A stretch of 64,000 nt of DNA, from positions 5,949-69,948 of the forward strand of contig CAYMJR010000001.1 in NCBI GenBank assembly GCA_964391315.1, given 5' to 3'. Positions 1 through 61,604 of the stretch are shown in pieces. Made by a program: the position numbers and the translations under genes. Origin of the DNA: an uncultured Gammaproteobacteria bacterium (GTDB lineage Bacteria > Patescibacteriota > Microgenomatia > Levybacterales > UBA12049). The notes beneath the pieces are model-generated. The model searched no databases and was not told the origin of the DNA. It was given only the letters and a program-made list of their open reading frames with translations. Positions within the stretch are counted from its first letter, which is position 1. Every line of letters begins with the position of its first letter.

Positions 1-57
1 ACTCAAAAAAATTCAAAATATTGAAGAAAACAGAATAATTTGTATATACTACTTCCA

Positions 58-756
58 ATGAATAGAATTAATACGATATTTACTTTGTACTCTCTTACGG
101 TATTACTTATTATCGTCGAACGACTTCTGCCATATACAAGAGGTTTTTTCCAACCACATAATTTCATACAAGTACATCAACTTATCCAAGCACTCATTTT
201 TATCCCAGTAACTGTTATTTTGTCCTTCTTTGTTATGAAAATAATAACTCATGATTTCCAAGCTTTAAAAGACAAAAGGAATGCATTATTAGCAGGTATG
301 TTTGTTATCGGTGTTTATTTTTATGGTACAGGTGAAGGGTTACATGAAGTTGCAATCATTACACTACACAAATATTGCGGTCACTCACTCAGCGATCTAT
401 GCAGTGGACTTTTTATCAATAGTTATTATACAGGTAATATCATCTTTTTTATTGGTGGTGTTCTGATGAATTTTTCTCTCTTGGCACTAGCAAAAAAACT
501 TCCTACACATCCTCTTACAAAAAAAGATCTGGTAATTCTTACTATTAATAGTATTGTTTTTGCATTTACCTGGTTTGCCTATGCGGCTTTTGATACAGTG
601 TCTGTCGGGCTATTCTTCTCTGCATTGTTGATGATTGTTTCTCTGGGCTTTTTAACAGTAATAAGGAAAAAATGGAGAGCTTACCCTTTCATTATCTATA
701 GTGCTTTAGCTTACTCATTAGCAACAATCGCTACATTTATAGTAAGATTTTTTTAA
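58..756 (+). CDS. polytopic membrane protein, unknown function
   Basis: ORF track 40..756 starts at TTG. The in-frame ATG at 58 lies 7 nt after TATACT (45..50), so 58 is preferred. Translation is dominated by hydrophobic helices (IFTLYSLTVLLIIV, IIFFIGGVLMNFSLLALA). No family recognised. Confidence 0.6.
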   Translation: MNRINTIFTLYSLTVLLIIVERLLPYTRGFFQPHNFIQVHQLIQALIFIPVTVILSFFVMKIITHDFQALKDKRNALLAGMFVIGVYFYGTGEGLHEVAIITLHKYCGHSLSDLCSGLFINSYYTGNIIFFIGGVLMNFSLLALAKKLPTHPLTKKDLVILTINSIVFAFTWFAYAAFDTVSVGLFFSALLMIVSLGFLTVIRKKWRAYPFIIYSALAYSLATIATFIVRFF

Positions 757-767
757 TGAAGGACTCT

Positions 768-1130
768 TTATTTTTTAATATATTTTTTAACCGTATTTAT
801 CAGATCAAATGTTTCAAATGGCTTGGCAAGGAAACCATCAGCACCACATACTTTTGCATCCTTTGCTGCATAGTGATGAGCTGACATCATCACAACTGGT
901 ACATTTTTTAACTTCGCATTCTTTTTAAGATCTTTGCAAATTATTCTTCCATCACTTCCTGAGATTAACATATCAAGTAGGATAAGATCAGGTTTCAACT
1001 CCTCAATTTTTTTATAGTTATGCTCTACATTTTGAAAAGTAATAACTACATACCCTTCTTCTTCCAACAACAATAATATTGGTTCTAATATGTCTTTATC
1101 ATCATCAATAACAAGTATTTTTTTGCCCAT
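768..1130 (-). CDS. stand-alone response regulator receiver protein (CheY-like)
   Basis: 120 aa comprising a single receiver domain. Acidic pocket VIDDDKD, phospho-acceptor Asp in LILLDMLISG, MMSA, conserved Lys in LAKPF. No output domain. Starts 8 nt after the kinase stop. Confidence 0.9.
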   Translation of the reverse strand: MGKKILVIDDDKDILEPILLLLEEEGYVVITFQNVEHNYKKIEELKPDLILLDMLISGSDGRIICKDLKKNAKLKNVPVVMMSAHHYAAKDAKVCGADGFLAKPFETFDLINTVKKYIKK

Positions 1131-1138
1131 GAAATTAT

Positions 1139-2725: not shown

Positions 2726-2734
2726 TGATATACT
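2726..2734 (+). promoter_or_regulatory. extended -10 box TGaTATACT, 6 nt before ATG 2741 (leaderless-type promoter)
   Basis: Read directly: tgatatact followed by tttttt and then ATG. Same geometry as more than 12 other genes in the window. Confidence 0.45.
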
Positions 2735-2740
2735 TTTTTT

Positions 2741-3163
2741 ATGGTGAAGATGGATCCAGTTGTACATTTTGAAATGCCTGCAAAGGACAAAAAAAGAACC
2801 GCTGCATTTTACTCCAAAGTTTTCGGATGGCAAATGAACCAACTTGGCGCTGAAATGGGTAACTATCTTTTAGCAGGTACCACAGAAGTCGATGAAAACC
2901 GAATGCCAAAAACTCCAGGCGCAATTAATGGTGGCTTCTTTGAATATCAAGAAAAAGAAGGCTTTAATGTTCCCCATTTAGTTATTTCTGTTGATAATCT
3001 TGAAGAATCAATGAAAAAAGTAGAAGAAGCCGGAGGAAAAATACTTGGCGGCGCAAAAGGTCGGGGAACAATTGATGATATCCCAGGTATTGGCCGCTAT
3101 GTTTCTTTTGAAGATTCTGAAGGCAACCATGTCGGCATGCTTCAACCCGCCCCAAGGCAGTAA
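2741..3163 (+). CDS. VOC (glyoxalase/bleomycin-resistance/dioxygenase) family protein
   Basis: 140 aa. N-terminal VHFEMPAKDKKRTAAFYSKVFGW and C-terminal GRYVSFEDSEGNHVGMLQP are typical paired beta-alpha-beta-beta-beta VOC modules. Confidence 0.8.
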   Translation: MVKMDPVVHFEMPAKDKKRTAAFYSKVFGWQMNQLGAEMGNYLLAGTTEVDENRMPKTPGAINGGFFEYQEKEGFNVPHLVISVDNLEESMKKVEEAGGKILGGAKGRGTIDDIPGIGRYVSFEDSEGNHVGMLQPAPRQ

Positions 3164-3188: not shown

Positions 3189-3194
3189 TATAAT
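3189..3194 (+). promoter_or_regulatory. -10 box TATAAT, 6 nt before ATG 3201
   Basis: Read directly: gattataat ttcatc ATG. Confidence 0.45.
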
Positions 3195-3200
3195 TTCATC

Positions 3201-4262
3201 ATGTTCATTTTTTCTCTCATTGGCTTGGCAATCATTTTGATTATCCTGTGGGATGCTTTTGAAACAGTCGTGCTGCCACGAAGAGTCACTAGAAAAATCC
3301 GACTTGCCCGAATTTATTATCGTACCCTTTGGCCTCTTTGGAGAAAAGGTGCAAAAAAATTTAAGAACAGCTCTTCTAAAGAAGCATACCTTGGCTACTT
3401 TGGTCCTCTTTCTCAGCTTTTTCTGTTAATGCTGTGGGAAGCTGGACTCATTATAGGGTTTGCTCTTGTGGATTTTGGAGTACAACTTCGATTATCACAT
3501 GTTTTTAATCACTGGGACTTCTTTGAATACATACTTGCTAGCGGAGGAGCGTTTCTTCCTCTCGAATTTTCAGATCTTGGAGCAATTGATCCATTTGGAA
3601 AAATTCTCTATATCATTGAGTCAGCAATCGGTATTGGTTTCCTGGCACTGCTCGTTGGTTATTTTCCTGTTCAATATGAGTCTTTCTCCAGACGCGAAAT
3701 ACATATCAACCTTCTTGATCCCCGGGCTGGCTCACCTCCGAGCGTTTTGCATTTTATAAAAAATTATTCAGGAAACGGCAATCAAAACTCGTTTCAGACA
3801 CTCCTTGAGAATTGGGAGGTGTGGTGTGCAGAACTTTTAGAATCTCATTTATCGTATCCAATTTTAGCGTATTACCGCTCACAACACGATCATCAATCAT
3901 GGGTTTCAGCGCTTCTTGCTATGTTAGATGTATCAGCAATGGTCATGATTGGTATTGATGGCATTCCCCGTGATCAAGCCAAATTTACCTTCTTAATGGG
4001 ACGTCATGCAGTGACAGATTTAAGTAGCTTATTTTATCGCAAACCAAAAAAGAACCATAAAGACAGACTTCCGTCTACAGATTTTAAAAAATTGCGTACT
4101 ATTCTTAAACAACATGGTATTCCACTTACAGCAGAAAAAGATGCAGAAAAACGGCTGAAAGAATTAAGAGATTCTTATGAACCGCATATTCAAGTATTAT
4201 CAGAATACTTTCTCATGCCTATCCAACCATTTCTTTCGCCACAAACCAAACTAGCAGATTAG
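3201..4262 (+). CDS. membrane protein, possibly ion-channel related; function unknown
   Basis: 353 aa. N-terminal TM helix then WDAFETVVLPRRVTRK, with further helices to about aa 170 and a soluble C-terminal half. The N-terminal motif recalls proteins annotated as potassium-channel-family, but no pore signature (TVGYG) is seen. Confidence 0.6.
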   Translation: MFIFSLIGLAIILIILWDAFETVVLPRRVTRKIRLARIYYRTLWPLWRKGAKKFKNSSSKEAYLGYFGPLSQLFLLMLWEAGLIIGFALVDFGVQLRLSHVFNHWDFFEYILASGGAFLPLEFSDLGAIDPFGKILYIIESAIGIGFLALLVGYFPVQYESFSRREIHINLLDPRAGSPPSVLHFIKNYSGNGNQNSFQTLLENWEVWCAELLESHLSYPILAYYRSQHDHQSWVSALLAMLDVSAMVMIGIDGIPRDQAKFTFLMGRHAVTDLSSLFYRKPKKNHKDRLPSTDFKKLRTILKQHGIPLTAEKDAEKRLKELRDSYEPHIQVLSEYFLMPIQPFLSPQTKLAD

Positions 4263-4317: not shown

Positions 4318-4326
4318 TGATACACT
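4318..4326 (+). promoter_or_regulatory. extended -10 box TGaTACACT, 6 nt before GTG 4333
   Basis: Read directly: tgatacact gaaaac GTG. Confidence 0.4.
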
Positions 4327-4332
4327 GAAAAC

Positions 4333-4977
4333 GTGAAAAATATCAGACTTACTGTTATTTTGTTGCTGATTATTGTTTTTTTGATCGCAGGCTATTTTTT
4401 CATTCTGCAATTTCGTAAATCTGGACCTACACCTTCGATATCTCCTTCCCCTACTTCGTCACTCTCTCCAACTAATTCCCTACCACCTGCAGCGAGTGCT
4501 TCGCCAACGGCTACGAAGGGTACGCCAACAACACAAACCTCTACCCCTCCATGTACCAACGATCAATTAGCAGCAACGATAGCTGCCCAAGGAGGCGCTG
4601 GGAATATCTTTGGAACACTAGAACTGACCAATACGGGAGCAACAACCTGTTCAGTAGTACTTGGCAACACAATCATTGAAACAACACCTGCAACAAATGT
4701 AACAGTTCACTATCAACAAACAGCTACGACACAAGTATTCGTGCTTAAGCCGCATGCCAAAGCATATTCGCAAGTCCACTATCCCAATGGACCACAATGT
4801 TCAAGCGGTGTTACACCACAACCTATTACCTTTCTCTACAAATCAGATCAAACAGCAGTCCCATTCCAATCAACAGCACCTCAGACAGGAACGCTCATGA
4901 TACAAGCATGTACTTCACAGACTGAAAAAACTGTTGTCGATATCTGGCCGCTTTCACAATCTCCTATTACTCCTTAG
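4333..4977 (+). CDS. secreted/anchored protein with S/T/P-rich linker and DUF4232-like domain
   Basis: GTG start and N-terminal TM anchor (LTVILLLIIVFLIAGYFFIL), then a PSPTSSLSPT linker. The domain begins CTNDQLAATIAAQGGAGNIFGTLELTNTGATTCSVVLG, which is the pattern of DUF4232. Confidence 0.6.
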   Translation: MKNIRLTVILLLIIVFLIAGYFFILQFRKSGPTPSISPSPTSSLSPTNSLPPAASASPTATKGTPTTQTSTPPCTNDQLAATIAAQGGAGNIFGTLELTNTGATTCSVVLGNTIIETTPATNVTVHYQQTATTQVFVLKPHAKAYSQVHYPNGPQCSSGVTPQPITFLYKSDQTAVPFQSTAPQTGTLMIQACTSQTEKTVVDIWPLSQSPITP

Positions 4978-4994: not shown

Positions 4995-5003
4995 TGCTAT
5001 AAT
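4995..5003 (+). promoter_or_regulatory. extended -10 box TGcTATAAT, 6 nt before ATG 5010
   Basis: Read directly: ttgctataat tgcctc ATG. Confidence 0.5.
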
Positions 5004-5009
5004 TGCCTC

Positions 5010-5780
5010 ATGAATGATGAAACAATTCGATTAGACAAGCATCTTGCAAATCTTGGAATCTGCTCACGGCGTGCAGTTGATGAGTTGTTGGAGAAAAATA
5101 TCGTCACAATTAATACCAAACGAGTAACGAAGTCTGGAGTACGACTTGATCCGAAAAAAGATGTCATTCTCATCAATGGAGAAAAACCAAAAAGACCAAC
5201 ACTCAAATATTATTTGCTTAATAAACCTAAAGGCTACATCTCGACAACCGCTGATGAACGTTCAAGAAAAAATGTTGTTTCTCTCATCAAAACAAATGAG
5301 CGGGTTTATCCTGTTGGCAGACTTGATAAAGATACCACAGGGCTGTTAATTTTAACCAATGATGGCGAGCTTACCAACCTCCTTACTCACCCACGATACC
5401 ATATTGCCAAAACATACCGCTTAACTGTTACTGGAGTTGTATCACAAGAACAACTCCAAAGATTCCGCAAAGGCATGTTGCTTGATGATGGCCCGACATC
5501 ACCTGCAGAAGTAAAAGTAGTAAACAAAAATGCGCAGGAAACAATCCTTGATATGACTATTCATGAAGGACGCAATAGACAAATACGAAGAATGTGCACC
5601 GAAGTAAAAGTGGATCTGAAAGAGCTTGAGAGAATCGCGATTGGTTCAATTCGTGATCAGAATCTGAAACTTGGTAAATATCGCGAGCTCTCCAAAAGTG
5701 AAATAAAGACACTTTTTACATATATCCACCAGAAGCAATCGCCTGACTCTCGAGTTGAACAATATCAGCAAAGAAGTTAA
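5010..5780 (+). CDS. pseudouridine synthase, RsuA/RluB family (S4 domain plus catalytic domain)
   Basis: S4 RNA-binding N-terminus IRLDKHLANLGICSRR. Catalytic motif GRLDKDTTGLLILTNDG. C-terminal EGRNRQIRRM. The last 65 nt overlap the convergent hydrolase gene. Confidence 0.85.
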   Translation: MNDETIRLDKHLANLGICSRRAVDELLEKNIVTINTKRVTKSGVRLDPKKDVILINGEKPKRPTLKYYLLNKPKGYISTTADERSRKNVVSLIKTNERVYPVGRLDKDTTGLLILTNDGELTNLLTHPRYHIAKTYRLTVTGVVSQEQLQRFRKGMLLDDGPTSPAEVKVVNKNAQETILDMTIHEGRNRQIRRMCTEVKVDLKELERIAIGSIRDQNLKLGKYRELSKSEIKTLFTYIHQKQSPDSRVEQYQQRS

Positions 5781-6594
5781 TCATCTCCCGATTGATATCT
5801 GCTGCATGTGTCCAAGGGATTCCGTGCGGTGCATTTTTCAATACAACCAATTTGCTTCCCTTTAGTTCTTCATGCAGACGCTTCCCAGTAATTGGAAACG
5901 GCAGAATCCGGTCAGCATCCCCTTGAATGATAAGGGTTGGGACATCAATCCGCTTTACATCTTCCCGAAAATCAGTCAGCCACGCCGGCACACAATCATA
6001 CGTCCCCTTGGGAGAAGCATTGACCGCTACATTCCAATTGGACTCCACAACTTCGGGACTGACAAGCTTATCAAGAGTGACATCAAGATTATAGAAATCT
6101 GAAAAGAATTTTGTGAGATAAGCAGGACGGTCTTCTGCAATACTTTTCATAAATCCATCAAACATACTCTGATCTACTCCCTGAGGATTGTCATCTGTCT
6201 TGAGAAGAAACGGCGGAATTGGAGAAACCAAAACAGCTCCACTGACCCGATCTGATCCATACTTACTAATATATCGTGTTACTTCCCCTGTCCCCATTGA
6301 ATGACCGACAAGAAAAGCATCCCGTAAATCAAGTTCTGTCATCAATATATCCAAATCCGCTGCAAAAGTATCGTAATCATAACCAAACGTTGGTTGACTG
6401 GATTTTCCAAATCCACGTCTATCATAGGTGATTGTTCGGAACCCTGCTTTCAAAAGTGCCATAACTTCTTTTTCCCACGCAACGCCGCTCATTGGAAATC
6501 CATGGATAAGAACAACAGGTTGACCTTTTCCATGATCTTCGAAATAAAGATTAACCTTGGTTGTATTTTCCCGATCTACAGTAAGTAATGACAT
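5716..6594 (-). CDS. alpha/beta hydrolase (non-haem haloperoxidase/arylesterase-like)
   Basis: HGFPMSG oxyanion region, nucleophile elbow GHSMGTGE, Asp in QGDADRILP, His in NAPHGIPWTH. ATG at 6594 lies 8 nt after TATAAT (minus strand, 6603..6608) and is preferred to TTG at 6600. Confidence 0.85.
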   Translation of the reverse strand: MSLLTVDRENTTKVNLYFEDHGKGQPVVLIHGFPMSGVAWEKEVMALLKAGFRTITYDRRGFGKSSQPTFGYDYDTFAADLDILMTELDLRDAFLVGHSMGTGEVTRYISKYGSDRVSGAVLVSPIPPFLLKTDDNPQGVDQSMFDGFMKSIAEDRPAYLTKFFSDFYNLDVTLDKLVSPEVVESNWNVAVNASPKGTYDCVPAWLTDFREDVKRIDVPTLIIQGDADRILPFPITGKRLHEELKGSKLVVLKNAPHGIPWTHAADINREMINFFADIVQLESQAIASGGYM

Positions 6595-6653
6595 AGGCAA
6601 CGATTATAAAAATCAATTACAAGATCCAGGTAACGTTCTGGTAATAAGGGAGT

Positions 6654-7828: not shown

Positions 7829-8317
7829 TCATTTTTTCTGAGGATGGACGATCAACACAGGACATGAAGCATATCTCACGACATAATCCGTCACAGAACC
7901 AAGCAATACTCTTTCTAGACCTGAAGTCCCATGGGTTGCCATAATGATAAGATCTGCTTTGACATTGTTTGCAGCATCAACAATTTCCTCTTCAGGTACA
8001 CCTTCGGCAACTTCTGTTTCGACGGCTCCTGCACCGGCATCCTCAAATTGCTGTTTTACTTTTTCCAAATATTCCTTTGCTCCTTTTTTATTAAACTCTG
8101 AAATCGCGACAGCCGTTGTCGGTGTCATTGCAACAGGTGCAGTCAAATTTGTTGATGGAGCAGCTGCCGTTGCTTGTCCAACTACTTCAGATACCGAAAA
8201 AAGCAATATGTGAGCGTTGAAGTTTTTTGCGAGAAGCACAGCATGAGGAAACGCCTCTGATGCAAAGTCTGAACCATCAGTTGTGACCAGAATATTCTGA
8301 TACTTGATTTCTTTCAT
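7829..8317 (-). CDS. universal stress protein (UspA family)
   Basis: NILVTTDGSDFASEA at the N-terminus. ATP-binding-type C-terminal motif MATHGTSGLERVLLGSVTDYVVRYASCPVLIV. Confidence 0.85.
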   Translation of the reverse strand: MKEIKYQNILVTTDGSDFASEAFPHAVLLAKNFNAHILLFSVSEVVGQATAAAPSTNLTAPVAMTPTTAVAISEFNKKGAKEYLEKVKQQFEDAGAGAVETEVAEGVPEEEIVDAANNVKADLIIMATHGTSGLERVLLGSVTDYVVRYASCPVLIVHPQKK

Positions 8318-8349
8318 GGCAAGAAAAATATACTCTCTCCCCCCTTCTT

Positions 8350-9065: not shown

Positions 9066-9266
9066 CTATTTTCCGTTTCCTTGGTGTACATTTACATCAA
9101 TTTTGTTAGGGATATTCACTTGTGGTGTCCCTCCTGATTGACGAAACATTGGTACGAGATACACAAAAAATATAACTGCGAACACAAGAACAAAAATGAC
9201 TCCCAAAATCAATCCCATTACATTACCTGAATTATCATTTCCGGGATTATTCACAATAGTTGCCAT
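9066..9266 (-). CDS. small single-pass membrane protein
   Basis: 66 aa with one TM helix (GLILGVIFVLVFAVIFFVYLV). Strong SD GGAGGTGA (9273..9280 on plus) lies 7 nt before the ATG. Confidence 0.65.
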   Translation of the reverse strand: MATIVNNPGNDNSGNVMGLILGVIFVLVFAVIFFVYLVPMFRQSGGTPQVNIPNKIDVNVHQGNGK

Positions 9267-9504
9267 TTCGTGTCACCTCCTTCTGTGTTTACCCTCAACT
9301 ATTATTGTAGTGGAGCAAAACAAAAGTTCAGTGAAATATCAGTAAGAAATCAGTAACAACGTCGAGTCTATTATCTCAAAGCTTCGGAGAATAAAGTGTC
9401 TACTAAACGACCCACTTTTTCTTCATATGCAATGGTTTCTCTTTTGGAGTCGGGAGCAACTTTCTTACACGAAAAATATGATTGAAAACTAAAATGAAAA
9501 ACAA

Positions 9505-10290
9505 ATGAAAAATATCCAGACCAAAAATATCGTTTTTATCACCGGCTCTTTTGTCACGCATCACTGCTGGGATGATTGGCAAAAATACTTTCAAAAAAAA
9601 GGTTACAATACGATGGCTCCCCCCTGGCCTTTCAAAGATGCATCCGTACAAGTACTTCGCGACAGACAGCCCAATGACACTGATCTGGCAACACTTACCC
9701 TATCTCAACTGATTAATCACTACGTAAAAATTGTCAAAGAATTTCCTGAAAAACCAATTGTCATCGGACACTCCCTTGGCGGTCTGGTAACACAAATACT
9801 CGTCAATAAAGGATTACCCGCAGCTGGTGTCGCGATTCACTCAGTTCCTCCACTTGGAGTATTTCCCTATGAATTCTCTTTTCTGAAATCTGGATGGCAT
9901 GCCCTTGGTGTATTTACCCCAGTTAAAGAGACATACCTGATGTCCTTTGAAGATTGGCAATATGCTTTCGTAAATGAAATGCCCCTCAAAGAACAAAAAA
10001 AAACGTATGAGAAATACCCAATTCCTGAATCCAAAACAGTAACACGAGGTGCACTCACAAAAGCCGCAAAAATTGATTTTGAGAAAGACCATCCTCCGCT
10101 TCTTCTTACTTCAGGAAGCGAAGATCATCTCATCCCAGCTCATCTTAATCTTCGTAATTTCAAACGCTATAAAAAGAACAAGTCTATCGTGGACTATAAA
10201 GAATTTAAGGGACGCACTCACTTTGTACTGGGACAGTCCACATGGAAAGAAGATGCCGATTTTATTCTTGATTGGCTAAATAAATTATAA
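9505..10290 (+). CDS. alpha/beta hydrolase
   Basis: 261 aa. IVFITGSF, nucleophile elbow IGHSLGG, C-terminal His region GRTHFV. Confidence 0.8.
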   Translation: MKNIQTKNIVFITGSFVTHHCWDDWQKYFQKKGYNTMAPPWPFKDASVQVLRDRQPNDTDLATLTLSQLINHYVKIVKEFPEKPIVIGHSLGGLVTQILVNKGLPAAGVAIHSVPPLGVFPYEFSFLKSGWHALGVFTPVKETYLMSFEDWQYAFVNEMPLKEQKKTYEKYPIPESKTVTRGALTKAAKIDFEKDHPPLLLTSGSEDHLIPAHLNLRNFKRYKKNKSIVDYKEFKGRTHFVLGQSTWKEDADFILDWLNKL

Positions 10291-10390: not shown

Positions 10391-10768
10391 TTATTTCAGT
10401 TCGATGACGTATGAGGTGAGTTGTTTAATCTTCGCGTTTTTATCATGACCCGTGAACTTATAAACATCACAAAAAGCAACAGAAAATTTTGAGAACCTTA
10501 TCACGCCATCTGCAGCTGCTTCGTCTCCATGTGTCACAATCGTATCAAGAATCAATTCCTCTGCTTTTTCATCGCCCATCGTCTCGAGAAATTTTCTGGC
10601 TTCTTCTTTGCCCTGCATTATTTTCTTCCCTACCATAACCCACACAATATCATCTGACATAAAATCCAGAATTTTCTCTTTGTTATTTTCAACAAATGCA
10701 ATATTGAAGTCGCGAATAAATTCTCTTTTTGGAGCATTCCCACAATCTTCCGGAACAGTAATTTTCAT
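10391..10768 (-). CDS. NTF2-like / SnoaL-like domain protein
   Basis: 125 aa. ILDFMSDDIVWVMVG and a cone-like alpha+beta pattern. TATAAT lies 9 nt upstream of the ATG. Confidence 0.6.
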   Translation of the reverse strand: MKITVPEDCGNAPKREFIRDFNIAFVENNKEKILDFMSDDIVWVMVGKKIMQGKEEARKFLETMGDEKAEELILDTIVTHGDEAAADGVIRFSKFSVAFCDVYKFTGHDKNAKIKQLTSYVIELK

Positions 10769-10786
10769 AATAACTTTATTATATCA

Positions 10787-11377: not shown

Positions 11378-11413
11378 AGACAAATGTTTGTTATTGATTA
11401 GAATTGTTTATTT

Positions 11414-11908
11414 ATGAATAAAACACATCCAATACCAAAAGAACAAGTAATAGTCGATTTTTCATTGAAAGGAGAAAAAAAAGGAGAAGCAAAAGCTTCT
11501 CTTATCAAAAGAATTGAGAAACAAGAGGATGAAGCATTGGGCAATGGTGCTGAAAATACTGCCTCTTTTACAAACAAACTTGTCAATCTTAGTGATCAAC
11601 CTGAAGAAATATTAATGAAAATGAAAACAGTTTTTCCTTTTGATTTTTTCCCGGACAGGATTACGATAGATCCAGTAAAAGTACAAATCATACAAAAATA
11701 CTTTTTTCTTTCTCAAACAGTGAAAACCATTCCGGTAAAAGACATCGTCGACGCTACTGTCGAAACCGGTCCTCTCACTTCAACACTTGAAATAGCAACA
11801 AAGGAAGATGATAAACCAATACGTATATCTTATATACGAACAAAAGATGCGGAAAAAGCAATGAAAATTATTAAAGGACTGATTATTGCACGAAATGAGG
11901 CACAATAA
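11414..11908 (+). CDS. hypothetical protein with bacterial PH-like C-terminal domain
   Basis: C-terminal FPDRITIDPVKVQIIQKYFFLSQTVKTIPVKDIVDATVETGPLTSTLEI resembles the bPH/YdbT-type fold seen again at 41777..42370. Confidence 0.5.
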   Translation: MNKTHPIPKEQVIVDFSLKGEKKGEAKASLIKRIEKQEDEALGNGAENTASFTNKLVNLSDQPEEILMKMKTVFPFDFFPDRITIDPVKVQIIQKYFFLSQTVKTIPVKDIVDATVETGPLTSTLEIATKEDDKPIRISYIRTKDAEKAMKIIKGLIIARNEAQ

Positions 11909-11914: not shown

Positions 11915-12295
11915 TCATGGTTCGAGCACAGCGAGGATATTTCCGGCAGGATCTTTAAACCATGCAATATCAGGACCCATCTTCGCTTCTTTTCCGCGGG
12001 CAATTCCCTTTTCATCCTGATGAAATCCTTCATAACGCTCAAAGGACACACCGAGTTTTTCCAACTCCTCAACTGCCGTATCAATATCATCAACAACAAA
12101 ATTCAGAATAGTAAATGATGCTGGTGTATGGTTTGGCTTTTCGTAGATAAACACGTTGCCCCCATGTGGCAAAGTAATCTCAAGTCCCATGGTACTGTCA
12201 TCAATAGCAAGTCCTAAAGTCTCATGATAAAACTTTTTGGCTTTTTTTATATCATCAACTGAAAACCCGCTAAATCCTGCTTTTGCTTTAAACAT
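11915..12295 (-). CDS. VOC (glyoxalase) family protein
   Basis: 126 aa. GFSVDDIKKAKKFYHETLGL and FKDPAGNILAVLEP are typical of the family. Confidence 0.8.
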   Translation of the reverse strand: MFKAKAGFSGFSVDDIKKAKKFYHETLGLAIDDSTMGLEITLPHGGNVFIYEKPNHTPASFTILNFVVDDIDTAVEELEKLGVSFERYEGFHQDEKGIARGKEAKMGPDIAWFKDPAGNILAVLEP

Positions 12296-12322
12296 ATATT
12301 TATAATATCATACTCAGTATAC

Positions 12323-14130: not shown

Positions 14131-14187
14131 ACCCTATTGTAACATGTTATTTTCCAGTGAATGTAGGTTATAATCAAATCATAAAAT

Positions 14188-14633: not shown

Positions 14634-15167
14634 TTATAAATTAATTGTCGTAAGCGTTTCATATACTGCTCCCGTTCTTCTCAAGTGTGACTCAATCAAA
14701 GAAAAAGATGAAATCTTATCTTTCCACATGATAGTCTCCAAAAAATTCTTTTCTTCGAACTGTTGAAATTGTTCCAAAGAAAACCGGGCAAGTGTTGTAT
14801 GCAAAATCTCATGTCTTCTTTCTTCACCTTTTTGAAGAATATTTGTGAGTTGTTTTTTTAATAGTAAAAATTCCTGAGGCATTTCTCCTCGTGCCCACAT
14901 AAGCCAAGGACGCTTATTCTCAGGACCAAATGCAACCATTTCAAAGACAACTGGAAATGGTTTGACGCAAGGCTTCATGTTTTGTAAAACATCACTAATC
15001 TCTTCCACGTTTTCTTCATACCAGGGAGGAAGTAATGTAATATGCAGATTCTCAGGAGGCGTCCACCGCACAGGAAATGTGATATGTTCTTCTTTCCATT
15101 TCCCAATTTCCTCGCGTAATGCATTGGATATCGTTACGCCAATAAAAATTCTTTTCTTTTTCTTCAC
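14634..15167 (-). CDS. thpR: RNA 2',3'-cyclic phosphodiesterase / 2'-5' RNA ligase (2H family)
   Basis: Two HxT/Sx motifs, NLHITLLPP and LHTTLARF, at the expected spacing. GTG start. Confidence 0.8.
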   Translation of the reverse strand: MKKKKRIFIGVTISNALREEIGKWKEEHITFPVRWTPPENLHITLLPPWYEENVEEISDVLQNMKPCVKPFPVVFEMVAFGPENKRPWLMWARGEMPQEFLLLKKQLTNILQKGEERRHEILHTTLARFSLEQFQQFEEKNFLETIMWKDKISSFSLIESHLRRTGAVYETLTTINL

Positions 15168-15177
15168 GCGCTTTTAA

Positions 15178-17012: not shown

Positions 17013-17018
17013 TATACT
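17013..17018 (+). promoter_or_regulatory. -10 box TATACT, 6 nt before ATG 17025
   Basis: Read directly: tctatact acataa ATG. Confidence 0.4.
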
Positions 17019-17024
17019 ACATAA

Positions 17025-45094: not shown

Positions 45095-45103
45095 TGCTAC
45101 ACT
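45095..45103 (+). promoter_or_regulatory. extended -10 box TGcTACACT, 7 nt before ATG 45111
   Basis: Read directly: ttgctacact gtaacta ATG. Confidence 0.45.
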
Positions 45104-45110
45104 GTAACTA

Positions 45111-48302: not shown

Positions 48303-48331
48303 TTGACTCTTGTGTCTTAATTCTTGATACT
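48303..48331 (+). promoter_or_regulatory. sigma-70-type promoter TTGACT-17 nt-GATACT, 6 nt before ATG 48338
   Basis: Read directly. -35 at 48303..48308 and -10 at 48326..48331. Confidence 0.5.
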
Positions 48332-48337
48332 TAATAT

Positions 48338-51019: not shown

Positions 51020-51025
51020 TACAAT
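51020..51025 (+). promoter_or_regulatory. -10 box TACAAT, 6 nt before ATG 51032
   Basis: Read directly: cctgtacaat acagtc ATG. Confidence 0.4.
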
Positions 51026-51031
51026 ACAGTC

Positions 51032-51493
51032 ATGCATCCCTATAAAGAAGCACTGAGAAGAAAAATACCAGCTGATGCGATACCACTCTCAGAGTTTACG
51101 CCAACAGTAAGAGGTTCAACAAAATTTGTCAGAGTTGGTGATGAAATACGAGTCGCTGCAAAAAAGGACCCGATACCTCCACATCCAAACTTAGTATCAG
51201 ATCTTGATGCTCAGATAAGAAGATTAAGAATTGAAGACCCTGCTCAACTTGATGGTGGTACTTTAGAATTTTTTCCTACTGAGAAGGTGTTAAGAATTGA
51301 TGGATCATCTGATAGTTTGGGTTATCCTCTTCCAGAACATACCGAAGATGCACGTAGAATAACAGCAGGCATAATAGAAGCTACGCTCTCTGGATATACT
51401 ATACGTTACGATAATAAATCAATTCCAGGTAACACAATACAAGGTGATTCTGGAGAGGCAGAATATGCATATTTTGATATAACAGAAGACTAA
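51032..51493 (+). CDS. orphan hydrophilic protein (153 aa)
   Basis: No family recognised. The stop TAA shares its last base with the ATG of the HAD gene (TAATG). Confidence 0.5.
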   Translation: MHPYKEALRRKIPADAIPLSEFTPTVRGSTKFVRVGDEIRVAAKKDPIPPHPNLVSDLDAQIRRLRIEDPAQLDGGTLEFFPTEKVLRIDGSSDSLGYPLPEHTEDARRITAGIIEATLSGYTIRYDNKSIPGNTIQGDSGEAEYAYFDITED

Positions 51494-52062: not shown

Positions 52063-52118
52063 TCTTTGTCCGAATTTTGTCTTGCAATTTGCTTCTCCAC
52101 CCGCTAGTATAAATACTA

Positions 52119-53165
52119 ATGAACCAGGAAGAACTACAAAAAGTCGCAAAAGCCCTTGTCGCCACAGGGAAAGGAATCCTCGCTGCTGATGAAAGTGCAA
52201 AGACCTGTCAAAAGAGGTTTGATAGTGTCGGCGTTGAATGTACTGAAGAAACACGACGTGAATACCGCGGACTTCTTTTTACTACTCCAAACGTCAATGA
52301 TCATATGAGTGGTGTCATCTTCTATGACGAAACCTTCTGGCAGAAAACAGATGATGGAAAAGCTTTTCCTGATTATCTCAAAGAACATGGTGTCGTCCCA
52401 GGCATCAAGGTAGACAAAGGACTTGTCGATTTGCCCGGTTTTGAAGGAGAAAAACTTACACAAGGCTTGGATGGTCTTCCTGAAGAAATGGCAAAATATC
52501 ACGAAGCTGGTGCACAATTTGCCAAATGGCGCGCAGTGATTACAATTGGTGAAGGCATTCCGACACAACAGTGTATTGATGCTAATGCGTTTGTCCTCGC
52601 CCGCTACGCACGGATTTGTCAGGACGCAAATATCGTACCGATTGTCGAACCAGAAGTACTTTATGATGGCAATCACAGTATTGAACAATGCGAAGAAGTG
52701 ATTCATAAAACATATGATGTTCTCTTCTCTACCATGAAAGCATTTCGTGTCTTTATGCCAGGAGCAATTCTCAAAACGAGTATGGTCCTTCCCGGAAAAG
52801 ACAGCGGCACACCAATCAATCACGATGATGTCGCAGCACGGACTGTCAAAGCACTACACGAACACGTCCCACATGACCTCGGCGGCGTTGTGTTCTTAAG
52901 TGGCGGACAAACCAGTAATGATGCATTTATTAATCTCAATAGAATTGCCAAAGGTGGCCCTCATCCATGGGGTGTCACTTTTTCCTACTCTCGCGCTATC
53001 CAGGATCCAGTGCTAAAAGCATGGGCAAAAAATCGAAGCGATAAAAATGCTGTACAAGATCTCTTTAAAAAGCAATTGGAAATGGTTGGTGCAGCAAGTG
53101 AGGGAAAATTGGATGAATCATTGTTGCAAACAGATACTGCTGCCTCCCGCTCTCAAGACCTCTAA
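52119..53165 (+). CDS. fba: fructose-1,6-bisphosphate aldolase, class I
   Basis: GILAADES near the N-terminus. Schiff-base Lys context AILKTSMV. LSGGQ. 348 aa, typical class I length. Confidence 0.9.
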   Translation: MNQEELQKVAKALVATGKGILAADESAKTCQKRFDSVGVECTEETRREYRGLLFTTPNVNDHMSGVIFYDETFWQKTDDGKAFPDYLKEHGVVPGIKVDKGLVDLPGFEGEKLTQGLDGLPEEMAKYHEAGAQFAKWRAVITIGEGIPTQQCIDANAFVLARYARICQDANIVPIVEPEVLYDGNHSIEQCEEVIHKTYDVLFSTMKAFRVFMPGAILKTSMVLPGKDSGTPINHDDVAARTVKALHEHVPHDLGGVVFLSGGQTSNDAFINLNRIAKGGPHPWGVTFSYSRAIQDPVLKAWAKNRSDKNAVQDLFKKQLEMVGAASEGKLDESLLQTDTAASRSQDL

Positions 53166-53166: not shown

Positions 53167-54138
53167 CTATCCCACTCGTTCTTCCATTTCCATGATCGTG
53201 AGGAGGCCGGCTTCGGCGCCAATATGTTCGACAACTGATGCGGCGTTTACCGCTCCCCATTTCATTCTCTGAGGAATTGGTAAACCATTGATGGTCGCTG
53301 CAAGAAATCCTGTTGTGTATGCATCACCTGAACCGGTTCTTTCAACAACTTCACCAGGAGCCATCGGACAGGTATAGAATTCACCATTTTCATCAAGACA
53401 AAATGAACCATCTTGTCCATTGGTGATGACAACTGTTTTGGGACCTCTTTTTTGCAGTTTCTCTGCAAGCCGCTGTATATATCCGTCGGTATCATCATCT
53501 TTCTCTCCGTAATGATTAAAGAGCAGCAGCTCAGCTTCCTCTTTATTCACAACCAATACTTCTGTATTGCTAAGTACAGCATGGACAACATCTTTGCCGT
53601 CTTTAAATTGAGGATTGCCAGGATTGAAAGCGATCTTTGCACCGACCTTTAAAGCGAAATCTAACACATGTTTGTATGCCTCATGCCATTCATTTCCAAG
53701 ACTAGTGATATAGACATATTTTGCTGTCGCGTCAATAATCTCAAATTTATTTTGTCTGACAACATGTTCATCAAAGATTGTCCGCTCCCCTTTATAATTG
53801 ATAATAACGGAGAAATTCGTCGCGCCGGGATTCTGGATCATAAAAAGTCGTTCAATATTTTCTTTGGCAAGACTATTTCTAATCCGTATTGAGAATTCAT
53901 CATCACCAATCTCGCTACAAAGGGTAGCTTTTAGTCCCAATCGTGCAAGACCAACTGCGACATTGGTCGCGTTTCCACCCATACAGAAATCATACCGGTC
54001 AACATTGATCTTTTCTCCATGACGAAAACACAAATGTCCATCTTCTGATAAATAATATTTCTCATGACTATCAGCAAGCCTCATGAATGCATCAATAGTT
54101 GTACTACCTACCGTAATAACGTCGTATTCTCGGATCAT
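53167..54138 (-). CDS. PfkB-family carbohydrate/nucleoside kinase
   Basis: Start at ATG 54138 (MIREYDVITVGS). GGNATNVAVGLARLG, and the anion-hole/ATP motif ERTGSGDAYTTGFL. Substrate not assignable. Confidence 0.85.
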   Translation of the reverse strand: MIREYDVITVGSTTIDAFMRLADSHEKYYLSEDGHLCFRHGEKINVDRYDFCMGGNATNVAVGLARLGLKATLCSEIGDDEFSIRIRNSLAKENIERLFMIQNPGATNFSVIINYKGERTIFDEHVVRQNKFEIIDATAKYVYITSLGNEWHEAYKHVLDFALKVGAKIAFNPGNPQFKDGKDVVHAVLSNTEVLVVNKEEAELLLFNHYGEKDDDTDGYIQRLAEKLQKRGPKTVVITNGQDGSFCLDENGEFYTCPMAPGEVVERTGSGDAYTTGFLAATINGLPIPQRMKWGAVNAASVVEHIGAEAGLLTIMEMEERVG

Positions 54139-54234
54139 ATAATAAGAGTAGCATAAAGAAAAAGAAAAACGCAATCGATGAGAATTAGAATTTCAATCGT
54201 GGATATATAGAAGATGTTACAGGATCTGCAGAAA

Positions 54235-56128: not shown

Positions 56129-56440
56129 TCACGAGCGTGAACGCGAACCACCTCTACTTCCAGCTATCCTTGCTTCTTCACTGGTAAACTCATGCGCTGT
56201 TCCTCTTTGATGAGCTATTCTACCTCCTTTACTTCTTTCTTCATCAGTAAGCTTATGCGCTTGTCCACTCTGCTGAGCTGCGCGACCACCTTTAGAACCG
56301 ATGTCTTGATGGAAATCTTCACCGTATCGTTCTTCAGCAGTCTGTGCCGCTTTTTGACCAGCCACTTTATGACCTGCCACATCACCATGCCACCCTGCTC
56401 CGGGCTTCTTTTTACCCGCACCTCCTCTGTTATTTGCCAT
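56129..56440 (-). CDS. KGG-repeat general stress protein (YciG/GsiB-like)
   Basis: Repeats GSKGGRAAQQSGQAHKLT, RSKGGRIAHQRGTAHEFT and GSRGGSRS. Strong SD GAGGAGGTGA 6 nt upstream. Confidence 0.8.
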   Translation of the reverse strand: MANNRGGAGKKKPGAGWHGDVAGHKVAGQKAAQTAEERYGEDFHQDIGSKGGRAAQQSGQAHKLTDEERSKGGRIAHQRGTAHEFTSEEARIAGSRGGSRSRS

Positions 56441-56544
56441 TGTGTTTCACCTCCTCTGTCATTTGGAAATGTTTACTGTACGCGTTTTTTTTAAATGCGT
56501 CATGAGAGTTACATAAGAAGGCTGTAAGGTGTCCGAATAGGATC

Positions 56545-56896: not shown

Positions 56897-57295
56897 TTAA
56901 TTGGGTTTGAAACTCAAAGAGCAACCATTGATGCAATACCTCTCTCCTGTTGTTTCCTTTGGTCCATCATTAAAAACATGTCCAAGATGTGAACCACAAT
57001 TTTTACAATTCACTTCAATCCTATGCATACCATAACTATTATCTTCCTCAAGATCAACATGCTCACGATTCATCGGTTGATCAAAACTTGGCCATCCAGT
57101 GCCACTATCAAATTTGGCATCACTGGAAAACAATTCGTAACCACACGCAGCACAAACATATTTTCCCTTATCATGATTTTGATATAACGTACTAGTAAAT
57201 GCTGGCTCCGTCCCCTTCTCTCGCAATATATGATATTGTTCTGGGCTTAGTCGTTTTTTCCACTCGTCCTCTGAAAGATGTTTCCAATCTGTCAT
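56897..57295 (-). CDS. msrB: peptide-methionine (R)-S-oxide reductase MsrB, cytoplasmic zinc-binding form
   Basis: Two CxxC pairs (CAACG and CKNCG). [11 protein letters not shown]. Catalytic RYCINGCSL. Confidence 0.9.
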
Positions 57296-57301
57296 GAAAT
57301 C

Positions 57302-57307
57302 AGTATA
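57302..57307 (-). promoter_or_regulatory. -10 box TATACT, 6 nt before ATG 57295
   Basis: Minus strand reads gatttatact gatttc ATG. Confidence 0.45.
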
Positions 57308-57452
57308 AATCGAAAACGTCTTTTTATCAACCAGAACTACTTTAAACTAGCTATAAATGTTCTTGACAAAGTTATTGATCTAGAGTACTATCTCAGCTAT
57401 AAGGATAAATTATTAGAAACTAAATTGTTTGTTTCAGCTAGTAACACAATGT

Positions 57453-59249: not shown

Positions 59250-59255
59250 GGAGTA

Positions 59256-59264
59256 TGCTACAAT
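59256..59264 (+). promoter_or_regulatory. extended -10 box TGcTACAAT, 6 nt before ATG 59271
   Basis: Read directly: atgctacaat ctaatt ATG. Supports 59271 over the internal ATG 59346 as the PBP start. Confidence 0.45.
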
Positions 59265-59270
59265 CTAATT

Positions 59271-61604
59271 ATGAACCTTCGTGCCCAGGTCATAGCACTT
59301 CGTGCGTTTTTTTCTAAAGAAACGATAGTCCTCCGGCTTCATTCGATGAAAAAACTTCTCGCTTGGAAATTTTGGTGGGACGGGATGAAAAAACACCGCC
59401 GTAAAATATTTTTCTTCATCGGTCTTTTCTTTATCATTCTGCTTGCAATTCCAATTGTCACCTATGCATATTTTGCAGGGGATCTCAAAGACAAAAATAG
59501 CTTTACCAATCATAATAATACTGGACTGACACTCCTTGATGATCAAGGCAAACCCTTTTTCACGTTTTACCATGCTAAGCAAGTAACCTATGTGCCACTT
59601 TCACAAATCCCAACATCAATACAAAATGCTGCTATCGCGTCTGAAGACCGCGATTTTTATACTAACCCAGGGTTTTCTTTCAATGGGATTATACGAGCAT
59701 TTATCACTAATTTTTTTGCGGGAAGAATTGTTGAGGGTGGATCAACAATCAGTCAGGAATTAGTTAAGAATGCGCTTCTCAATTCTAATCGCAATATCTT
59801 ACGAAAATATCAGGAACTGGTGTTGGCAACAGAACTGAACCGGCGATTTAGTAAACAAGATATTTTGGAAATGTATCTTAACTCAGTATATTTTGGTGAA
59901 GGCTCATTTGGGGTTGAAAATGCAGCCCAAACATATTTTGGTGAACATGCAAAAGACCTCACTCTTGCACAATCAGCAATTCTTATCGGTATTCTTCCTG
60001 CTCCTTCTGCATATTCACCGCTTTCAAATAATCCACAAATTGCCAAAAACAAACAACATCAAGTCCTTTCAGATATGGTTACAGAAAAATTTATCACAAA
60101 ACAACAGGAAGATCAGGCACTCTCTGAAAAACTTGTCTATCAATCGCTTGACCAAAACCAAAATCAAAATGTGCTTGCTCCACATTTTGCTATTTACGTC
60201 AAAGATCAACTAGTACAAAAATATGGTGAAGAACGAATCATTAATGACGGATTTCAGGTAAAAACAACTCTTAATAGTAAATGGCAGGTATATGCTGAAC
60301 AAGTTGTAAAAAATCAAGTTTCCTATTTACAAAGAAACAATGCAAGTAACGGTGCTGTCGTTGTCATTGACCCAACAACAGGTGCAATAAAAGTAATGGT
60401 CGGCAGTCATGACTGGAATGATGAGAAAAACGGCAAAATAAATATGGCAATCCATCCTCGCCAACCAGGATCGAGTTTTAAACCATTTATTTATTCCGAC
60501 GCAATTGAAAAACATCTGATAACACCCGCTACTCTTTTAAAAGATAATCCAATTGCCTATGGTGATTACAAACCGTTTGATTACGACAGAAGATTTCGGG
60601 GTGATGTAACAGTCAGAAGAGCGCTCTCAAATTCGCTCAATATTCCTGCAGTGCAGGTTATGAATATGCTTGGTGTTCCTGAAGGTCTCACTATAGCCAA
60701 AAAATTTGGTATTACCTCCTTAGGAGATGATGCATCAAAATATGGGTTGTCGCTTGTTCTTGGAGCTGGTGAAGTGTCGCTGCTTGAAATGACGGATGGC
60801 TATGCTGTTTTTGCTGATCAAGGAGTCTATCACACACCTTACTCAATTATCGATATCAAAGATAAATATGGCAATGAAGTAAATGCCAACCCACAAAACT
60901 TCTTCTCTCAATTGTTAAGTCTCTTTAATATTTCTTCAATCATTCCTTCACCAAATCAACGTGAAGAAAGGATTGTTATTGGCGAAGATACAGCATTTCT
61001 TATCTCTTCAATCCTTTCAGACAACAATGCCCGAGCTGAAGAATTTGGTAATGCTCTTACCATTTTCCGACCAGCAGCAGTTAAAACAGGAACAACCAAT
61101 GATTTTAAAGATGCACTCACCATTGGGTATACACCAGGACTCGTTGTAGGAGTGTGGGTCGGAAACAATGATAATACACCGATGGATAATATCGCCGGCT
61201 CATTAGGAGCAGCACCAATCTGGAGGCTTTTGATGCAAGATTTTCTCGCCGGTACTCCTCTACAACCGTTTATCAAGCCAGCATCTGTAGTAAAAATTTT
61301 CCCGTGCACTTCACCTTCTCCATCAAATGCTCCAACAGGAACACCAATTGCATCTATTTCAGGAGTTGAATATTTTATTCAGGGTACAGAACCTCCAGCA
61401 TGTCCAACACCAACAACAAGTCCAACAACAAGTCCAACAACAAGTCCAACAACAAATCCGACAACATCTCCAACACAATCACCTACTAATGCGCCTTCCG
61501 CAACACCGACTGACTCTCCAACACCTACACAATCTGTTCCTCCAACACCTACGCCAACAAGTATCCTTCCGACACTACCACTTAGTCCTACCCCAACCCC
61601 GTAA
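59271..61604 (+). CDS. class A penicillin-binding protein (PBP1A: GT51 transglycosylase plus transpeptidase) with PT-rich C-terminal tail
   Basis: GT51 motifs ASEDRDFYTNPG, GGSTISQEL and RKYQELVLATELN. Transpeptidase motifs SSFKPFIY (SxxK), SNS and KTGTT. Tail PTTSPTTSPTTSPTTNPTTSP...PTPTP. Confidence 0.9.
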   Translation: MNLRAQVIALRAFFSKETIVLRLHSMKKLLAWKFWWDGMKKHRRKIFFFIGLFFIILLAIPIVTYAYFAGDLKDKNSFTNHNNTGLTLLDDQGKPFFTFYHAKQVTYVPLSQIPTSIQNAAIASEDRDFYTNPGFSFNGIIRAFITNFFAGRIVEGGSTISQELVKNALLNSNRNILRKYQELVLATELNRRFSKQDILEMYLNSVYFGEGSFGVENAAQTYFGEHAKDLTLAQSAILIGILPAPSAYSPLSNNPQIAKNKQHQVLSDMVTEKFITKQQEDQALSEKLVYQSLDQNQNQNVLAPHFAIYVKDQLVQKYGEERIINDGFQVKTTLNSKWQVYAEQVVKNQVSYLQRNNASNGAVVVIDPTTGAIKVMVGSHDWNDEKNGKINMAIHPRQPGSSFKPFIYSDAIEKHLITPATLLKDNPIAYGDYKPFDYDRRFRGDVTVRRALSNSLNIPAVQVMNMLGVPEGLTIAKKFGITSLGDDASKYGLSLVLGAGEVSLLEMTDGYAVFADQGVYHTPYSIIDIKDKYGNEVNANPQNFFSQLLSLFNISSIIPSPNQREERIVIGEDTAFLISSILSDNNARAEEFGNALTIFRPAAVKTGTTNDFKDALTIGYTPGLVVGVWVGNNDNTPMDNIAGSLGAAPIWRLLMQDFLAGTPLQPFIKPASVVKIFPCTSPSPSNAPTGTPIASISGVEYFIQGTEPPACPTPTTSPTTSPTTSPTTNPTTSPTQSPTNAPSATPTDSPTPTQSVPPTPTPTSILPTLPLSPTPTP
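61410..61469 (+). repeat. 12-nt tandem repeat (CCAACAACAAGT x3 perfect, plus 2 degenerate) encoding PTTS units
   Basis: Read directly at 61410..61445, with degenerate copies running to 61469. Confidence 0.85.

Follow-up and report, generated by a model that had tools for sequence, protein, structure and literature searches.

Here we describe a 64,000-nt stretch of bacterial DNA (contig CAYMJR010000001.1 of assembly GCA_964391315.1, positions 5,949 to 69,948 of the forward strand), hereafter the window, in which many genes, from those of a glyoxalase-family protein and a pseudouridine synthase to those of an aldolase, a PfkB kinase and PBP1A, are preceded by a hexamer close to TATAAT that ends a few nucleotides, most often 6, before the start codon. 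The window has ~39% GC, is 92% coding and uses the standard genetic code (stops TAA 50, TAG 14, TGA 12). The original prediction, made from the letters alone, saw in these boxes a pervasive leaderless organisation, i.e., messenger RNAs (mRNAs) that begin at or next to the start codon. The boxes do occur at this distance well beyond chance, and it is their meaning that is weighed below.

Boxes at a fixed distance from start codons

Starts were taken as the first ATG, GTG or TTG of each open reading frame (ORF), blind to the motif, in 73 ORF-based genes; a strict box was defined as TAnnnT with at least five of six matches to TATAAT, and the gap is the number of nucleotides between box and start codon. 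A strict box stands at a gap of 5-9 nt in 20 of the 73 starts, with 0-10 in other 5-nt bins, and dinucleotide-preserving shuffles of the same upstream regions (n=1000) gave 3.5 +/- 1.8, with a maximum of 11 (z ~9). Position by position, 10 boxes lie at gap 6 and 8 at gap 9, against a single-position maximum of 6 over all shuffles. Control ATGs, either in-frame internal (n=293) or all other (n=2394), carry the box at ~0.3-1% per position, with no peak. Since a TATAAT at gap 6 or 9 makes no in-frame stop, the rule of the first start codon does not create the peaks.

The same gene-call-free pipeline was calibrated on 150 kb each of Deinococcus radiodurans MP1, known to be leaderless-rich, and of Bacillus anthracis pXO1, which has 33% GC and is led by Shine-Dalgarno (SD) sites: the former presents a TAnnnT peak at gap 6 and the latter a flat profile. 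Moreover, all 24 upstream sequences cited in the original prediction read back with hexamer, gap and start codon in agreement, and its claim that boxes at fixed spacing exceed chance is borne out by this positional comparison with shuffled and internal-ATG controls.

One might nevertheless suppose that AT-rich DNA produces the pattern by chance, or that the choice of start codons created it, as TATAAT-like words are common at 39% GC and generic promoter-like pairs do not rise above shuffles. The departure from the dinucleotide shuffles, the lack of a peak at internal ATGs and its lack in pXO1, more AT-rich than the window, all speak against this, as do the agreement of motif-blind starts with Pfam boundaries and with stored gene calls, and the recurrence of the peak in independent genomes (see below). 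We hold such an explanation to be extremely improbable.

Promoter character of the boxes

The hexamers carry further marks of promoters. The TGn extension precedes 9 of the 20 strict boxes, compared with 5.9% for hexamers of this form across the window (p ~8e-7); the original prediction had noticed this element and counted six, a number that is too low, for at least 12 boxes carry it. Enrichment of the -35 element is modest: with a 16-18-nt spacer, four or more of its six bases match upstream of 7 of 20 boxes against 11.8% (p = 0.006); TTGACT, TTGCAA and TTGATA are clear examples, and many boxes have none. Textbook -35/-10 pairs are found as TTGACT-17-GATACT (48338), TTGCAA-17-TAGTAT (52119), TTGATA-17-TATACT (57295) and TTGACT-18-TAGTAT (24593). 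The box of 52119 had first been read as TATAAA with a 5-nt gap, a reading that did not hold, the one kept in relatives being TAGTAT with an 8-nt gap and the -35 TTGCAA.

When gap-6 cases of the window and its relatives are pooled (n=89), T occupies position -15 in 70% and G position -14 in 62%, and the start codons are ATG in 90%, GTG in 10% and TTG in 0%. In the region from -32 to -20 of this pooled class no specific motif was found, and so no archaeal-type TATA box at ~26 nt. The individual promoter-adjacent starts are collected in Table 1, together with SD-led genes for contrast.

Table 1. Promoter-adjacent starts of the window and, in the last four lines, SD-led genes; spans run from the upstream element to the end of the start codon
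Gene or product	Span (strand)	Element	Gap or spacing (nt)	Start	Remarks
Hypothetical protein	45..60 (+)	TATACT (45-50)	7	ATG 58	favoured over in-frame TTG 40 upstream
Glyoxalase family	2726..2743 (+)	TGaTATACT	6	ATG 2741	Pfam Glyoxalase from residue 8
Gene at 3201	3189..3203 (+)	TATAAT	6	ATG 3201	-35 TTGATT, 16-nt spacer
DUF4232 protein	4318..4335 (+)	TGaTACACT	6	GTG 4333	
Pseudouridine synthase	4995..5012 (+)	TGcTATAAT	6	ATG 5010	
Alpha/beta hydrolase	6592..6608 (-)	TATAAT (6603-6608)	8	ATG 6594	alternative in-frame TTG 6600
Universal stress protein	8315..8332 (-)	TATATT	9	ATG 8317	weaker case; Usp domain from residue 6
Alpha/beta hydrolase	9490..9507 (+)	TAAAAT	9	ATG 9505	
SnoaL-like protein	10766..10786 (-)	TGaTATAAT	9	ATG 10768	
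Gene at 11414	11399..11416 (+)	TAGAAT	9	ATG 11414	-35 TAGACA, 16-nt spacer
Glyoxalase	12293..12310 (-)	TGaTATTAT	6	ATG 12295	in 27-nt divergent intergenic region
GH18 glycosidase	14128..14144 (-)	TGtTACAAT	5	GTG 14130	
LigT-like phosphoesterase	15165..15182 (-)	TATAAT	9	GTG 15167	
Gene at 17025	17013..17027 (+)	TATACT	6	ATG 17025	17 nt past stop of upstream gene
DsbD-thioredoxin fusion	19791..19811 (-)	TGaTATACT	9	ATG 19793	
Crp-like regulator	24073..24090 (-)	TGtTATAAT	6	ATG 24075	
DUF7144 protein	24174..24189 (+)	TACAAT	7	ATG 24187	
Zinc-ribbon protein	24556..24595 (+)	TTGACT, 18-nt spacer, TAGTAT	7	ATG 24593	
Bcp/AhpC peroxiredoxin	29067..29087 (-)	TGgTAAAAT	9	ATG 29069	
UPF0176 rhodanese protein	30744..30764 (-)	TGgTATAAT	9	ATG 30746	
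Pyridine nucleotide-disulphide oxidoreductase	37658..37672 (-)	TATGAT	6	ATG 37660	
Putative 49-amino-acid ORF	39893..39907 (-)	TATACT	6	ATG 39895	uncertain as real gene
DUF4147/MOFRL glycerate-kinase-like	45095..45113 (+)	TGcTACACT	7	ATG 45111	
FAD-linked oxidase	48303..48340 (+)	TTGACT, 17-nt spacer, GATACT	6	ATG 48338	
Gene at 51032	51020..51034 (+)	TACAAT	6	ATG 51032	-35 TTTACC, 16-nt spacer
Class I fructose-bisphosphate aldolase	52082..52121 (+)	TTGCAA, 17-nt spacer, TAGTAT	8	ATG 52119	
PfkB kinase	54136..54153 (-)	TGcTACTCT	6	ATG 54138	
MsrB/SelR	57293..57330 (-)	TTGATA, 17-nt spacer, TATACT	6	ATG 57295	
PBP1A	59256..59273 (+)	TGcTACAAT	6	ATG 59271	
SD-led gene	9264..9280 (-)	GGAGG	9	ATG 9266	contrast
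SD-led gene	27279..27291 (-)	GGAGG	5	ATG 27281	contrast; operon-internal
SD-led gene	34648..34660 (-)	GGAG	6	ATG 34650	contrast; operon-internal; 1 nt past upstream stop
SD-led gene	56438..56454 (-)	GGAGG	9	ATG 56440	contrast

Some arrangements are unusually tight. The divergent genes starting at 12295 (-) and 12323 (+) lie 27 nt apart, and their -10 boxes overlap (TATTAT at 12302-12307 on the minus strand, TATCAT at 12306-12311 on the plus strand), so that the two promoters stand face to face and each -35 region lies inside the coding sequence of the neighbour; another divergent pair, 11383/11414, is separated by 30 nt (11384-11413). In a gene for a PAS histidine kinase (2617-2632, minus strand), TGtTATAAT stands just 3 nt before the first ATG; a start site 7 nt past this box would hit the second codon (ATA), and the next in-frame ATG is at 2581.

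Assignment of the start codons

Nearly all of the cited starts are the first ATG, GTG or TTG after an in-frame stop, and therefore the reading frame cannot reach further upstream. At the other end, Pfam domains start 2-20 residues into the proteins: position 4 of the AhpC-TSA profile aligns with residue 2 (start 29069), position 3 of DsbD_TM with residue 3 (19793), position 1 of UPF0176_N with residue 3 (30746), position 1 of the Glycolytic profile of the class I aldolase with residue 5 (52119), position 2 of DUF7144 with residue 5 (24187) and position 2 of the S4 domain with residue 7 (5010). As the domains begin this near to the N-terminus, the true starts cannot be far downstream. Furthermore, public assemblies contain identical contigs, and the gene calls stored for these agree on 45111, 48338, 51032, 52119, 57295 and 59271, and place PfkB at 54138; the start of PBP1A, which had been settled from the box pattern, is thus the one that the collection gives as well. 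Start calling in metagenome bins of the Candidate Phyla Radiation (CPR) would improve if a promoter-adjacent start were modelled, as this resolves 58 vs 40, 6594 vs 6600 and 54138 vs 54174 in the window.

A mixed genome

Frequencies were counted in a curated table of 76 genes, of which 65 are plausible heads of transcription units. Of the 76, 25 have a strict box at 5-9 nt, as do 24 of the 65 plausible heads, and four more genes (24593, 48338, 52119 and 54138) have weaker boxes backed by a good -35 or TGn. Roughly 40% of the transcription units are promoter-adjacent, a substantial share that stands alongside SD-led and coupled genes and for which the word pervasive is too strong. Nine of the 76 have a box at 10-14 nt (e.g., the transketolase at 42625 and the genes at 14188 and 44513), nine have good SD sites at proper spacing (9038, 9266, 15342, 23360, 27281, 29779, 31343, 34650 and 56440), and 33 have neither box nor SD, many of them being coupled by stop/start overlap. 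The statement that none of the boxed genes has an SD sequence holds for the genes then listed, including PBP1A, where an AAGGAG ~17 nt upstream of 59271 is too distant to serve as such; the genome is nevertheless mixed, with good SD sites at no fewer than nine other genes of the window.

Operon context tells starts next to a promoter apart from those behind a non-SD ribosome-binding motif (PMC6028130). In ~1 Mb of related contigs, where a gene was considered coupled if it follows a co-directional ORF within 15 nt, the box precedes 5% of coupled genes vs 31% of those behind 16-60-nt gaps (Fisher p = 0.0018), and SD-like words behave in the opposite way (18.6% vs 8.1%). In the window itself, the box is present in 1 of 11 coupled genes.

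These data bear directly on the idea that the hexamer is an AT-rich, non-SD translation signal within a longer 5' untranslated region (UTR), as in the Bacteroidetes-like group B of GeneMarkS-2, rather than a promoter. The motif is indeed located where a ribosome-binding site would be, and many boxed genes closely follow a co-directional gene. However, a motif of group B precedes all genes (PMC6028130), and here the box is depleted at coupled internal genes, where SD-like words are enriched; in addition, TAnnnT with TG two positions upstream is the signature of an extended -10 element, -35 matches are enriched, and clear GGAGG sites elsewhere show that ordinary SD pairing is in use. A translation signal of this type appears very unlikely to us.

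Conservation and spread among relatives

Syntenic relatives were obtained through homologues of PBP1A, and share with the window a gene order that runs from DUF4147/MOFRL through a split transketolase, the FAD oxidase, the aldolase and PfkB onwards to PBP1A; in the window, the split transketolase is adjoined by a full-length one. The promoter of DUF4147, TGCTACACT followed by 7 nt, is identical in the window and in the relative L088, and box and gap are also identical in L091. Before MsrB, the 6-nt gap is found both in the window (TATACT) and in L089 (TACAAT) though the boxes differ, and gaps of 6-9 nt occur in L100, L104 and L121. For PfkB, TGCTACTCT plus 6 nt is present in both the window and L094, and the zinc-ribbon orthologue in L121 has TTGACT-17-TACTAT with a 9-nt gap. 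Beyond these, the Crp-like regulator (24075 in the window) has orthologues with ~40% protein identity in three Microgenomates loci, L043 and two of Curtissbacteria, all of them with TGnTAnnAT, a 6-nt gap and a GTG start.

The aldolase promoter TTGCAA-17-TA(G/C)TAT is kept across relatives, even before a class II aldolase. Behind it, a class I aldolase (PF00274) is encoded in the window (52082-53165), L092 and L096, and a class II enzyme (PF01116) in L088 (4973-5986) and L089 (2926-3936), which looks like a non-orthologous replacement under one promoter. As for PBP1A, nearly all relatives keep TGCTACAAT or a similar extended box 6-15 nt before the start. The element is thus conserved as a promoter immediately before the ORF, with an exact gap that is not invariant.

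The spread of the signal was followed in a metagenome scan with PBP1A that gave 80 loci, a few of them of high GC and probably not CPR. The gap-6 peak is present in all three tiers of PBP1A identity, with 20 strict boxes in 327 ORFs at >=55%, 9 in 87 at 46-53% and 45 in 782 at <=43%; the high-GC loci among them gave no 6-nt signal. For replication, a stricter word, TGnTAnnnT at exactly 6 nt, was compared with its background per position: it was found 7 times in the window (background 0.11), 49 times in the ~1 Mb of PBP1A relatives (2.1), 9 times in Curtissbacteria loci (0.33) and 6 times in loci of Roizman-, Levy-, Gottesman- and Daviesbacteria (0.5). Parcubacteria-like loci gave 2 (0.39, not significant), Ktedonobacteria and other non-CPR loci 0-2 (0.17-0.67) and pXO1 none (0.22). 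Bacteroidota loci had no 6-nt peak, and the three Saccharibacteria-labelled loci of the panel, 43 kb, are too few to judge. A scan of genome contigs with the transketolase brought CPR and Ktedonobacteria matches of at most 66% identity and no synteny with the window, and served as a panel of labelled taxa, not for orthologous promoters.

Altogether, we lean, by a modest degree, towards the view that leaderless or near-leaderless expression from extended -10 promoters is a trait of the whole clade of Microgenomates-type CPR and is absent, or far weaker, in the Parcubacteria-like loci sampled. If so, this would be the first AT-rich, ultra-small-genome lineage among the leaderless-rich bacteria, and there may be a link between the trait and the reduced ribosomes of CPR, in which uL30 is missing, bL9 is often missing too and bS1 tends to be shorter (PMC9297842).

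The host and other features of the window

The sequences place the host, a soil bacterium assembled from the read sets SRR12266071/72/74 and SRR31070024/45/48, in the Patescibacteria/CPR, where it is probably Microgenomates-like. Its placement below the phylum is tentative, because there is no rRNA or ribosomal-protein marker within the window. The top credible named match of PBP1A belongs to a Patescibacteria group bacterium (65% identity); a 67% match labelled Methylomirabilota is taken to be a mis-binned contig. PBP1A homologues sit on contigs of 1.0-1.3 Mb. The CysRS of the syntenic relative L088 has its best named matches in Patescibacteria (71%) and Levyibacteriota (65%), and the best matches of the transketolase are CPR genomes, at ~66% identity.

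Many public records of metagenome-assembled genomes with close homologues are labelled 'uncultured Gammaproteobacteria', Methylomirabilota, Acidoferrales, Limnocylindrales or Xanthomonadales. The records so labelled have a CPR-like GC and gene content and the same 6-nt promoter peak, and are probably mis-binned or mislabelled CPR contigs. The gene content of the window is itself atypical for CPR in its redox and stress functions (Usp, Bcp, two MsrB, DsbD-thioredoxin, two YflT/DUF1269, DoxX, an FAD monooxygenase and two PAS histidine kinases), and several of its domains are usual in Actinobacteria or Chloroflexi (DUF4232, DUF7144, baeRF family 10, ActD-like).

Scans for tRNAs and Rfam families over the whole window gave zero matches. 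Despite the coding density there are two long non-coding gaps, at 7333-7828 (496 nt) and 41425-41776 (352 nt), neither with an Rfam match; the first might hold an unannotated minus-strand ORF of 79 amino acids, which would start at ATG 7581, 7 nt past a TATTAT. The pseudouridine synthase (5010-5780, plus strand) and the alpha/beta hydrolase (5716-6594, minus strand) are convergent, their 3' ends overlapping by 65 nt (5716-5780). A strong terminator-like hairpin (56084-56117, minus strand), with a 15-bp stem and then a T-rich tail, lies between the gene hyp103 and a gene of 522 amino acids starting at 56066.

Leaderless transcripts or short leaders

Ribosomes carrying initiator tRNA bind leaderless mRNAs directly; no SD pairing takes part, and protein S1 is not required. 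From the geometry of the promoters, we infer that the hexamers are in all likelihood -10 elements placed so that mRNAs start at or near the start codon, and that ribosomes are recruited to such leaderless 5' ends. The boxes would belong to housekeeping promoters of the sigma-70 type, mostly extended -10 (TGnTAtaaT), with a -35 that is weak or absent. Transcription start sites are centred 7 bp downstream of the -10 box (PMC12641261), and a 6-nt gap would therefore put the first mRNA nucleotide on the A or G of the start codon, giving an mRNA that begins with it. Transcripts of this kind would have no 5' UTR and no SD site. If they behave like those of Actinobacteria and Deinococcus, a ribosome would bind the AUG or GUG at their 5' terminus and initiate there directly. 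Gaps of 7-9 nt would correspond to the same start site or to leaders of 1-3 nt, and boxes at 10-14 nt to SD-less leaders of ~4-7 nt; operon-internal genes, in turn, would rely on SD sites or on stop/start overlap, i.e., translational coupling. All the sequence-level predictions that were examined agree with a leaderless interpretation: the peak, TGn and, to a modest degree, -35 elements, operon context, start codons, conservation, calibration and Pfam boundaries.

Several observations pull the other way. A 9-nt gap would mean leaders of 3 nt unless start-site selection shifts, and the 9-nt class has no peak in relatives, with 3 cases at 9 nt vs 20 at 6 nt in the tier of >=55% PBP1A identity. 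Spacing is not strictly kept before PBP1A, since the orthologues nearest to that of the window show gaps of 11-12 nt. The pyrimidine at -1 that would be expected if the start site coincided with the start codon is weakly enriched (71% vs 60%). A co-directional gene ends 17-60 nt before many boxed genes, with no obvious terminator in between, and read-through transcripts with an internal start may also exist. Finally, generic sigma-70 -35/-10 pairs in the window are not above shuffles (46 vs 48.2); raw counts of promoter words are therefore uninformative, and the signal lies only in their position relative to start codons.

The 9-nt class deserves a separate comment. Its members in the window are 8317, 9505, 10768, 11414, 15167, 19793, 29069 and 30746, with almost no box at 7-8 nt, and in relatives the positions 7-9 nt form a flat shoulder. 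The class noted in the original prediction is therefore real in the window, with these eight genes, and is not replicated as a peak. In the related loci examined there are no orthologues of its genes, and non-canonical start codons sought 3 nt upstream in this class were not found. This secondary peak could be chance or an organism-specific preference in the choice of start site.

A further alternative is that the boxes are promoters but that many transcripts, especially those with gaps of 9-14 nt, bear SD-less leaders of 1-7 nt, whose initiation may differ from the recognition of a 5'-terminal AUG. Besides the eight strict boxes at 9 nt, the nine more at 10-14 nt in the window and the gaps of 11-15 nt before PBP1A orthologues in several relatives agree with it, as does the usual centring of start sites 7 nt past the -10 box (PMC12641261). 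Nevertheless, the dominant class, and the sole one replicated in relatives, is that of exactly 6 nt, and the choice of start site can move a few nucleotides to a purine. As a general account we think short leaders rather unlikely, and they would alter the detail for a subset of genes with the overall picture unchanged; for boxes at 9-14 nt taken by themselves, leaders of 1-7 nt are as likely as none.

Comparison with known systems

In our literature search we found no paper linking leaderless organisation to CPR/Patescibacteria, beyond reference-list or unrelated mentions, and a TM7x transcriptome preprint has no UTR or promoter analysis in it; annotation with GeneMarkS-2 may have captured the organisation silently. 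A rule for promoters of largely uncultured bacteria, TGnTAtaaT, 6 nt and then ATG, would be useful for genetic tools. In a wider perspective, a low-GC lineage of reduced genomes would join the bacteria that rely heavily on leaderless initiation, which touches on two questions: whether Terrabacteria-like lineages had leaderless translation ancestrally, and how the reduced ribosomes of CPR initiate.

Many genes of the window have no SD, as is the case in Bacteroidetes (group B of GeneMarkS-2) and in the leaderless genes of archaea (group D). Nevertheless, the group B motif precedes all genes, including the operon-internal ones, unlike the box, which in relatives is depleted at coupled genes; and group D is defined by a TATA box ~26 nt upstream (PMC6028130), a position at which the pooled gap-6 class has no specific signal, the proteins of the window being moreover bacterial, e.g., PBP1A. 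With extended -10 sigma-70 promoters the boxes share the TG two positions before the hexamer and a -35 that is weak or dispensable, but the extended -10 is a class of promoter and not of gene organisation, and what is distinctive here is the fixed distance to the start codon.

The closest likeness is with group C, in which a Pribnow box lies 6-8 nt from the starts of first-in-operon genes, 25-50% of operons are leaderless and SD sites serve other genes; this group comprises 90% of the genomes of Actinobacteria and 97% of those of Deinococcus-Thermus (PMC6028130). Like its members, e.g., Mycobacterium tuberculosis and Deinococcus-Thermus, the window has boxes at 24-28 of 65 plausible unit heads, a 6-nt peak and SD sites elsewhere. 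In Deinococcus-Thermus, the '-10 motif adjacent to ORFs', present in ~30% of ORFs, was shown by mutation and reporters to be the promoter of leaderless mRNAs (PMC12340547); the geometry and the 6-nt peak are the same here, where they are known from sequence, in another phylum and with another base composition. The ~40% of the window lies inside the range of group C and near the ~30% of Deinococcus-Thermus.

The organisation is thus of the group C type and not a new mechanism. Unlike the hosts of that group, that of the window is AT-rich (39% GC), a CPR/Patescibacteria of small genome and not a high-GC actinobacterium or a Deinococcus, and its intergenic spacers are extremely short; its promoters are mostly extended -10 (TGn in ~45-60%), whereas the Deinococcus plasmid used as control is almost without TGn. 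A low-GC host with a reduced genome, and the dominance of the TGn extension, are what sets this case apart.

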